From Terriglobales bacterium (GTDB taxonomy: Bacteria > Acidobacteriota > Terriglobia > Terriglobales > Acidobacteriaceae), in assembly GCA_050746025.1 (NCBI GenBank), contig JBOGLH010000002.1, positions 4,473 through 68,472 of the forward strand: 64,000 nucleotides of DNA. The letters run 5' to 3'. The notes beneath the pieces were generated by a model, which was not told the DNA's origin, ran no database searches, and saw only the letters and a list, made by a program, of their open reading frames with translations. Of this stretch, positions 26,488 to 27,069 are shown piece by piece; the first letter of the stretch is position 1; every line of letters begins with the position of its first letter. Both the position numbers and the translations under genes were made by a program.

Positions 26488-27069
26488 TTACCGGCGGATC
26501 TTTAGCAGCGCATCGAGTATTTCCTCGAGCGGCGCACGATCGGTCTGATCATCTCCGCGATAGATATATCGGATAGCGCCGCTGCGGCCGACGATCAGAG
26601 TTGCAGGGTGTGCGACGCGAAAGGCGTCGTGCGCCAGTGCATGATAGAGCCCGTAAGATTTCGTCACTGAGCGGTTCTCGTCCAGCAGGAACGGAAACGA
26701 AATCGGATGTTCAGCCAGATACTTTTCCGGCTCCCACATACCATTTCTTTTTTCAGCAGCTATGTAAATCAGGCTAGCGCGAAGTTTGTCGATCTCTTCT
26801 TTGTGCGGCTCAACCTGAGCCAGGCGCTTGCGGCAGTTCGGTCACCAGGTTCCACGAAGAAATTCAACAATGGTTGCGCCGCGCGAAATTAGATCTGAAA
26901 GCGAAAATTTTGCATCGCTATTTGCCGATGGCAATGTGAATGCCGGCGCGAGCGAACCAATGGTGAGTGTTTCAGTTTGATTTTTCACCGTGCTCTGTAT
27001 TCCAAAAATCAGTGCCGCCGCTGCATCATTTATAATCGCAGGTTTCCAACTCCACCATGGCAAAAACAT
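26488..27069 (-). CDS. Thioredoxin-fold peroxiredoxin-like (AhpC/TSA-type) protein with an in-frame TGA at the first position of a U-x-x-C motif; putative selenoprotein of 193 aa
   Basis: Track ORFs 26842..27069 and 26488..26739 are in the same frame. The only stop between them is TGA (26842-26844). The read-through product is ...IVEFLRGTW-[TGA][42 protein letters not shown]..., which places the TGA where thioredoxin-fold proteins carry the CxxC/peroxidatic Cys. The N-terminal start at 27069 is tentative. Confidence 0.7.
26807..26821 (-). promoter_or_regulatory. Candidate bacterial SECIS-like stem-loop downstream of the in-frame UGA
   Basis: The mRNA reads UGA-N20-GGCUCA-GGU-UGAGCC. This is a perfect 6-bp stem (plus a flanking U.G pair) with a G-first apical loop that begins about 26 nt after the UGA. 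Confidence 0.45.

Follow-up and report, generated by a model that had tools for sequence, protein, structure and literature searches.

A probable peroxiredoxin-like UxxC selenoprotein gene, divided by an in-frame UGA, at a conserved enolase locus of Terriglobales

On the minus strand of a 64,000-nucleotide (nt) stretch of a Terriglobales bacterium genome (contig JBOGLH010000002.1, positions 4,473 to 68,472; hereafter the window), a mechanical list of open reading frames (ORFs) places two short ORFs, 26842..27069 and 26488..26739, in the same frame with a gap of 34 codons between them, and the question that the locus raises is whether these are the remains of a broken gene, two separate genes, or a single gene in which a stop codon is read through. 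Translation of 26488-27069 gave one frame of 193 codons followed by a terminal TAA (26488-26490), and its sole internal stop was the TGA at 26842-26844 (codon 76 of 194) in the context ...IVEFLRGTW-[TGA]-PNCRKRL..., in agreement with the hand translation of the original prediction. We consider it very probable that this is one intact gene, 26488-26988 on the minus strand, encoding a cytoplasmic redox protein of about 166 amino acids (aa) with a peroxiredoxin (Prx) fold and the active site W-U-P-N-C, whose UGA would be decoded as selenocysteine (Sec, U) by way of a downstream hairpin. The single frame, the domain that crosses the TGA, the alignment of the site with Cys or Sec, the conservation of the TGA and its flanks, and the conserved hairpin carry this reading, and the earlier suggestion of a probable selenoprotein is strongly supported by domain, alignment, the TGA in 76 of 80 loci, selection and hairpin. 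The elements concerned are:

26488-26988, minus strand: coding sequence of the putative Prx-like UxxC selenoprotein, 166 codons plus TAA with one UGA read through (reading frame, Pfam, 80 syntenic loci, and the ratio of nonsynonymous to synonymous substitution rates, dN/dS)
26842-26844, minus strand: UGA presumably read as selenocysteine, the U of W-U-P-N-C; aligned with the first Cys of WCPNC and TGA in 76 of 80 loci
26833-26835, minus strand: Cys codon TGC of U-P-N-C, the presumed resolving partner (T13, G14 and C15, all invariant in nucleotide alignment A2)

When Cys was put in place of the stop, the translated product matched the Pfam families AhpC-TSA (6.7e-19; 68.5 bits, cut-off 26) and Redoxin (8.9e-19; 68.2 bits, cut-off 26.6), each as one stretch over residues 37-184 that spans the TGA. 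A protein homolog search covered 5.8 billion proteins, and its best 120 matches were listed. Among these, full-length homologs of about 168 aa with 51-62% identity read EFLRGTWCPNCR. The TGA column thus coincides with the opening Cys of CxxC, the place to which an alignment had been expected to assign it; examination of 24 full-length homologs and four orthologous loci showed this Cys, the first of WCPNC, in every case. One Cys homolog (P0023) carries the NCBI name 'peroxiredoxin-like family protein'. The closest relatives among the matches listed (70-83% identity) were all fragments of 107-124 aa starting at M-A-Q-[F/L]-E-P, which lies eight codons past the TGA position, and more than 60 clusters in the same list (P0025-P0120; JGI, ENA, NCBI and Logan) consist of such 107-124-aa entries, many of them named "peroxiredoxin". 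That gene callers split or truncate genes of this kind had been stated in the original prediction, and these clusters, which begin after the TGA, bear it out; judged by their sequences, we read the entries as C-terminal fragments of the same selenoprotein and as an error of annotation that recurs systematically in data from soil metagenomes. The 1.14-Mb contig from which one of the fragments derives (L001) has the same neighbouring genes, an upstream in-frame ORF and the sequence ...EFLRGTW-TGA-PNCRNRMAQFEPHK.

A scan of genomes, in which each GTDB species was represented by one, yielded 80 loci, all labelled as Terriglobales, Terriglobia or Acidobacteriota metagenome-assembled genomes (MAGs) except one labelled Chlamydiota. 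The codon at the site was TGA in 76 of the 80 loci, TGT in two and TGC in two, the Cys-type loci being L028, L033, L042 and L064. Recurrence of the TGA at one codon of one gene in so many species is not due to chance. A divergent enolase gene accompanied 70 loci, a convergent GH57 gene 77, and both together 67; both also flank three of the four Cys forms, and in the fourth (L042) the GH57 match is partial only. Because they share the enolase/GH57 locus, these genes are orthologs and not paralogs. Median dN/dS (Nei-Gojobori) was 0.23 over the 22 codons before the TGA and 0.18 over the 38 codons after it, with dS above 1; purifying selection acts on both flanks of the TGA.

Past the UGA the transcript contains a selenocysteine insertion sequence (SECIS)-type element:

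26806-26822, minus strand: hairpin UGGCUC-AGGUU-GAGCCG (pairing, frozen synonymous sites, minimum free energy (MFE) and the bacterial SECIS (bSECIS) criteria)

This hairpin has a 6-bp stem and a 5-nt loop, begins 25 nt past the UGA and sits within the codons for L-A-Q-V-E-P (alignment columns 26-31 and 37-42). The published bSECIS model allows a loop of 3-9 nt of the form N1-G-[G/U]-N-N2 (G within its first two nucleotides), a stem of 4-16 bp, a UGA-to-loop distance of 16-37 nt and an MFE of -7.5 kcal/mol or lower (PMC13188914); with its 5-nt loop A-G-G-U-U, 6-bp stem, 25-nt spacing and MFE of -9.0 kcal/mol, the hairpin lies within every one of these bounds. Single-sequence folding of the region after the UGA gave an unremarkable energy (z = +0.26 and +0.76), and the case for the hairpin was therefore made by comparison of sequences and not by thermodynamics. 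In an alignment of 76 distinct Sec-type sequences, whose counts are not phylogenetically independent, 92.5% of the pair cells held standard pairs as compared with 21-41% when the 3' partners were slid by 1-3 columns; the variation within the stem was mostly from G-C to G-U, and the loop followed the pattern A-G-[U/G]-U-N across orthologs, its fifth position being freely variable.

Since the hairpin lies inside the coding sequence, synonymous sites offer the more informative test. Glu was encoded by GAG in 77 of 77 cases in the hairpin as against 47% elsewhere in the same genes, and the corresponding values were 73 of 73 and 72% for CAG (Gln), 74 of 74 and 37% for GCU or GCC (Ala), and 38 of 57 and 10% for CCA (Pro). 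The Cys-type orthologs are without the hairpin, and one of them (L064) encodes M-A-Q-L-E with GCG CAA CUU GAA. A check of the region after the UGA for a bacterial SECIS, proposed with the original prediction, thus yielded a SECIS-type hairpin with constraint at the RNA level.

Sec use is on record for the wider lineage. The cultured Terriglobales species Occallatibacter riparius is listed as Sec-utilising with three selenoproteins, FdhA, an AhpD-like protein and a deiodinase-like protein (PMC12013277). The published sequences of these proteins (PMC12013277) were used as probes on the related loci, and an AhpD-like gene was found at L016:13338-13937 (plus strand) with 63% identity to the O. riparius selenoprotein and a TGA (13617-13619) at the published C-P-Y-U (C-x-x-U) position. 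This gene lies about 7 kb from the Sec-type ortholog of the gene studied here, on the same contig, and has a hairpin of 7 bp with the loop CGUGUU that begins 24 nt after the UGA; it is a probable second selenoprotein gene, and one that gene callers would split too. That one contig carries two independent in-frame TGAs, each aligned with Cys and each followed by a similar hairpin, is an argument that Sec is actively decoded in these organisms, and it is at the level of the lineage that this evidence speaks. A crude screen of the window for other single-TGA read-through candidates gave none that was convincing.

Several results weigh against decoding of the UGA as Sec, or leave the case for it less complete. 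ARAGORN detected no tRNA in the 64-kb window, and among the 80 related loci, each of 20 kb, it detected no tRNA-Sec; tblastn searches with E. coli SelA, SelD and SelB probes matched nothing in the window or in those loci. The nearest scan match to the window was 73% identical over the frame of the original prediction, the species of the window itself being absent from the collection. Compensatory covariation in the hairpin was seen at one pair only (G-C to A-U, in L083 and L084), a C-A mismatch occupied one stem position in 29 of the 76 sequences, and the ATG and TTN of most orthologs correspond in the window to CTG and GTT, the stem being kept. The energy of the hairpin relative to shuffled sequences was unremarkable (z = -1.7 for the hairpin and +0.8 in its 49-nt context), and a scan of 26400-27200 against Rfam at E up to 10 returned only a chance snoRNA match and no SECIS family. 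To these may be added that the biochemical function proposed below would follow from homology. That the Sec machinery is not in the window had been stated at the outset, and no selA, selB, selD or tRNA-Sec was detected within it; ten window ORFs of SelA/SelB/SelD-like size were all unrelated housekeeping proteins or enzymes by Pfam.

These points bear most directly on an explanation in which the UGA is read through without Sec, by a near-cognate Trp or Cys tRNA or by a suppressor tRNA, the hairpin acting as a generic stimulator of read-through. Such decoding draws on the same small hairpin with its limited covariation and on the negative searches for Sec machinery in the window, yet we consider it unlikely. 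The position is the catalytic Cys, and nothing else, in every Cys homolog, and therefore only Cys or Sec fits the function; moreover the hairpin has the geometry of a SelB-type bSECIS, with G-[G/U] in the loop and the 25-nt spacing, within the window TGA functions as a normal stop, and related organisms use Sec.

A second alternative is that the locus makes two products: a short N-terminal peptide would terminate at the TGA, and a C-terminal protein of about 110 aa would have an initiation site of its own. Most gene callers do annotate a product of that length from M-A-Q-[F/L]-E-P, and an ATG stands at this start in 75 of 77 Sec-type genes, but its conservation is explained by the pairing of its U in the hairpin, and in the window and in L012 the codon is CTG (Leu), the next ATG leaving 83 aa. 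The fragment would also miss both the active-site motif and those N-terminal strands that the modelled fold contains. In-frame protein conservation extends over the upstream part as well, and we regard two separate products as very improbable.

Equally little probability attaches to a pseudogene, in which a nonsense mutation from TGC or TGT to TGA would have made a Cys-type Prx-like gene of this strain non-functional. One base change suffices for it, Cys-type orthologs with TGT or TGC occur at the same locus (L028, L033, L042 and L064), and no Sec machinery was seen in the window; against this, the TGA is present in 76 of the 80 species genomes at saturated synonymous sites (dS above 1) with no other lesions, purifying selection is equal before and after the stop, and a conserved RNA hairpin follows it. 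Since the TGA is unchanged over such divergence and both halves are under purifying selection, a pseudogene is excluded; the original prediction had named relatives with an intact Cys codon, beside other lesions in this strain, as the sign of one, and what was found is relatives that share the TGA and purifying selection on both flanks.

A reassigned genetic code was rejected as an explanation, because TGA is an ordinary stop in the window, where it ends 13 of the 34 long ORFs.

With the gene read as one that encodes a Sec-containing protein, the type of that protein can be considered. Its best solved relative was the Aeropyrum pernix BCP (2cx3; E 3e-12), one of the BCP/PrxQ peroxiredoxins, and the AlphaFold model of the Cys homolog P0001 (predicted local distance difference test score, pLDDT, 91.3) has a Prx/BCP fold with a template modelling score (TM) of 0.85 to Sulfolobus Bcp4 (3hjp) and places the CxxC at the start of a helix (residues 50-61). 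In the alignment to 2cx3 ('wcpnc' against 'fspvc'), Sec falls on the Thr/Ser of the canonical Prx motif P-x-x-x-T/S-x-x-C and the second Cys on the peroxidatic Cys. The canonical motif is absent from R-G-T-W-U-P-N-C, which has Arg at the Pro position, and the conserved catalytic Arg of peroxiredoxins is likewise absent, its position being taken by the Pro of A-H-P-A-T ('vahpatliv' against 'vakravfiv' of 2cx3):

26605-26610, minus strand: His-Pro of A-H-P-A-T, listed as invariant (alignment A1; alignment to 2cx3)

In alignment A1, H154 is near-invariant (at least 90% of sequences) and P155 is invariant; we take this Pro, from what is known of the thioredoxin fold, to be probably the cis-Pro of thioredoxin-like oxidoreductases. 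Sec in place of the Prx Thr and Pro in place of the catalytic Arg point to a Prx-like UxxC thiol:disulfide oxidoreductase and not a canonical peroxiredoxin, and with the P-x-x-x-T/S-x-x-C motif and the catalytic Arg both lost, a canonical peroxidase mechanism is not expected. The UGA had originally been placed at the first-Cys site of both AhpC/TSA and thioredoxin-like proteins; this holds for the CxxC of the thioredoxin/TlpA type, but canonical AhpC/TSA proteins have Thr or Ser there. By inspection of the sequence, the N-terminus is without a hydrophobic segment, signal or anchor, and the protein is therefore taken to be cytoplasmic.

From these features we infer Sec insertion at the UGA, together with a substrate and a reductant. 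SelB carrying Sec-tRNASec would decode the UGA at 26842-26844 as selenocysteine, being recruited by the mRNA hairpin at 26806-26822 (loop A-G-G-U-U) within the coding sequence. Positioned where the active-site helix has its N-terminus, the selenolate would act as nucleophile towards an oxidised substrate, which may be a disulfide or, possibly, a peroxide. Sec and the Cys three positions further on would then join in an intramolecular selenenylsulfide, to be recycled by a thioredoxin-type reductant. Selenolate/selenenylsulfide chemistry recycled by thioredoxin appears the most likely course.

That UxxC Prx-like selenoproteins are a known class, as the original prediction stated, is confirmed by the literature: they have been catalogued with pfam00578 and pfam08534 since 2005-2008, as 'Prx-like 1' with pfam00578 (PMC2398784) and as 'Prx-like thiol:disulfide oxidoreductase' and 'Redoxin family protein PF08534 UxxC' (PMC1794560; PMC13188914, Table 1), and they stand in the 2026 inventory of prokaryotic selenoproteins (PMC13188914). 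The gene studied here shares with them the AhpC-TSA/Redoxin domain, the UxxC, the existence of Cys homologs, a SECIS within the coding sequence just past the UGA, truncation by gene callers and, as the family criterion has it, a second Cys of UxxC that corresponds to the Prx peroxidatic Cys. Whereas the known examples come mainly from Deltaproteobacteria and marine metagenomes, this one belongs to Terriglobales and to a fixed enolase/GH57 locus. The gene is a new member of the known UxxC Prx-like selenoproteins, or represents at most an ortholog group of theirs that had not been documented before, and the group may coincide with a listed subfamily, e.g. "Redoxin family protein, UxxC", the comparison being by family description only (representatives WP_010940744.1 and HEU0032618.1).

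Other relatives of the fold resemble the protein in part. The CDD family PRX_like2 (cd02970) carries a thioredoxin-like CxxC on a Prx scaffold, its second Cys corresponding to the peroxidatic Cys and the Prx Thr and Arg being absent, and the same arrangement is seen here; the best NCBIfam match was the 'SelL-related redox protein' family (NF040769), of which the protein is not a member, scoring 53.7 bits against a cut-off of 120 over residues 27-123 only. Animal SelL has UxxU, whereas the studied protein has UxxC. BCP/PrxQ proteins (2cx3, 3hjp) are the closest in structure and sequence but have P-x-x-x-T/S-x-x-C where this protein has R-x-x-x-U-x-x-C, and the catalytic Arg where it has the invariant Pro. 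With the TlpA/ResA/CcmG (DsbE) proteins it shares W-C-x-x-C, a conserved Pro before the central strand and weak sequence matches (39.7 against a cut-off of 170 for ResA, and 24.4 against 359 for DsbE), but those proteins are membrane-anchored and periplasmic, and here no N-terminal hydrophobic segment is present. PrxU (T-x-x-U, NF040737) is also a selenoprotein of the Prx fold, but its Sec replaces the peroxidatic Cys, three residues later than the Sec considered here, and the match to it reached 22.6 bits against a cut-off of 270.

In an unbootstrapped neighbour-joining tree of this short protein, Cys forms were basal and a large Sec clade that includes the window had several Cys subclades nested inside it, which suggests that Sec was gained once and that reversion to Cys then took place repeatedly; such a pattern agrees with what has been called the "dynamic evolution" of selenoproteins in bacteria (PMC1794560). 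The reverted Cys forms have lost the M-A-Q-[F/L]-E-P peptide and the hairpin. It is conceivable, if somewhat short of probable, that the Prx-like UxxC protein is a near-universal 'core' selenoprotein of Terriglobales at a fixed enolase locus, and that it constitutes a clean natural experiment in which a minimal in-frame SECIS, GGCYCAGUUNGAGCC, dictates M-A-Q-[F/L]-E-P and several reversions from Sec to Cys occurred independently. Terriglobales are dominant aerobic soil Acidobacteriota, and were the tentative 'core' interpretation true, their selenium dependence would have been under-appreciated. The results indicate that Sec decoding, with at least one Sec-dependent redox enzyme, may be widespread in Terriglobales, and they offer a well-sampled case in which the constraint of a SECIS would shape a protein sequence and relax on reversion from Sec to Cys. 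Dozens of fragment clusters in the databases would be the C-terminal halves of a 165-170-aa selenoprotein whose active site was lost in annotation. The value of the finding lies mainly in this correction of annotation and in the breadth of the selenoprotein in Terriglobales, and no new mechanism is involved.

The 5' boundary of the gene differs from that first proposed. A read-through product of 193 aa had been predicted, of which the single frame stands but probably not the length:

26986-26988, minus strand: probable start codon GTG, homologous to the ATG of the orthologs
26989-27069, minus strand: upstream in-frame stretch, probably non-coding; orthologs start downstream of it

The orthologs start at M-x-x-x-T-E-T-L, with an ATG four codons ahead of T-E-T-L in nearly all of them, and because the GTG at 26986-26988 is the counterpart of that ATG in the window, it is probably the start of the gene, giving a predicted product of 166 aa. 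The 27 upstream in-frame codons (26989-27069) are not conserved as protein in most loci, where matches begin at residues 24-30, and they match only in the nearest relatives, in which the entire enolase-prx intergenic DNA is near-identical (e.g. L001); since the identity extends over the whole intergenic DNA, this stretch is probably non-coding and would belong to a 5' leader or to promoter DNA common to this gene and the divergent enolase gene. No obvious Shine-Dalgarno sequence was present in the window upstream of the selenoprotein gene start. Most orthologous loci share a conserved TA[G/C]AGTC-like motif that precedes the start codon by about 12-17 nt, e.g. CCTTAGAGTCGATTCCAGATG, and the version in the window, at about 26992-27000 on the minus strand, is GAATACAGAGCACGGTG; the motif may be a -10-like promoter element, with a very short leader or a leaderless mRNA.

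Among the related loci, L001, L005 and L007 have enolase genes about 98% and GH57 genes about 90% identical to those of the window, whereas their selenoproteins are 68-73% identical over the frame of the original prediction, and database fragments of the C-terminal part are 73-83% identical to the window. Because of its lower identity than enolase and GH57 in these three loci, the selenoprotein appears to evolve faster than its neighbours. The locus labelled Chlamydiota (L027; JBLMXE010000133.1, Chlamydiota bacterium MAG264) carries a Terriglobales-type Sec gene together with enolase and GH57 genes (82% and 64% identical to those of the window), and is probably misbinned rather than evidence of the gene in Chlamydiota.

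The neighbourhood of the selenoprotein gene, which is kept in relatives, contains glycogen/alpha-glucan genes (22209-26452 and 60499-62388), namely GH57, a CBM48/alpha-amylase branching-enzyme-like gene and, further on, a GH15 glucoamylase-like gene, with no evident functional link to the redox protein. The enolase ORF (27057-28481, plus strand, 474 aa) is over-extended, its conserved sequence beginning at M43, about 27183, and the divergent enolase and selenoprotein genes have about 195 bp of intergenic DNA between them, which is near-identical in L001.

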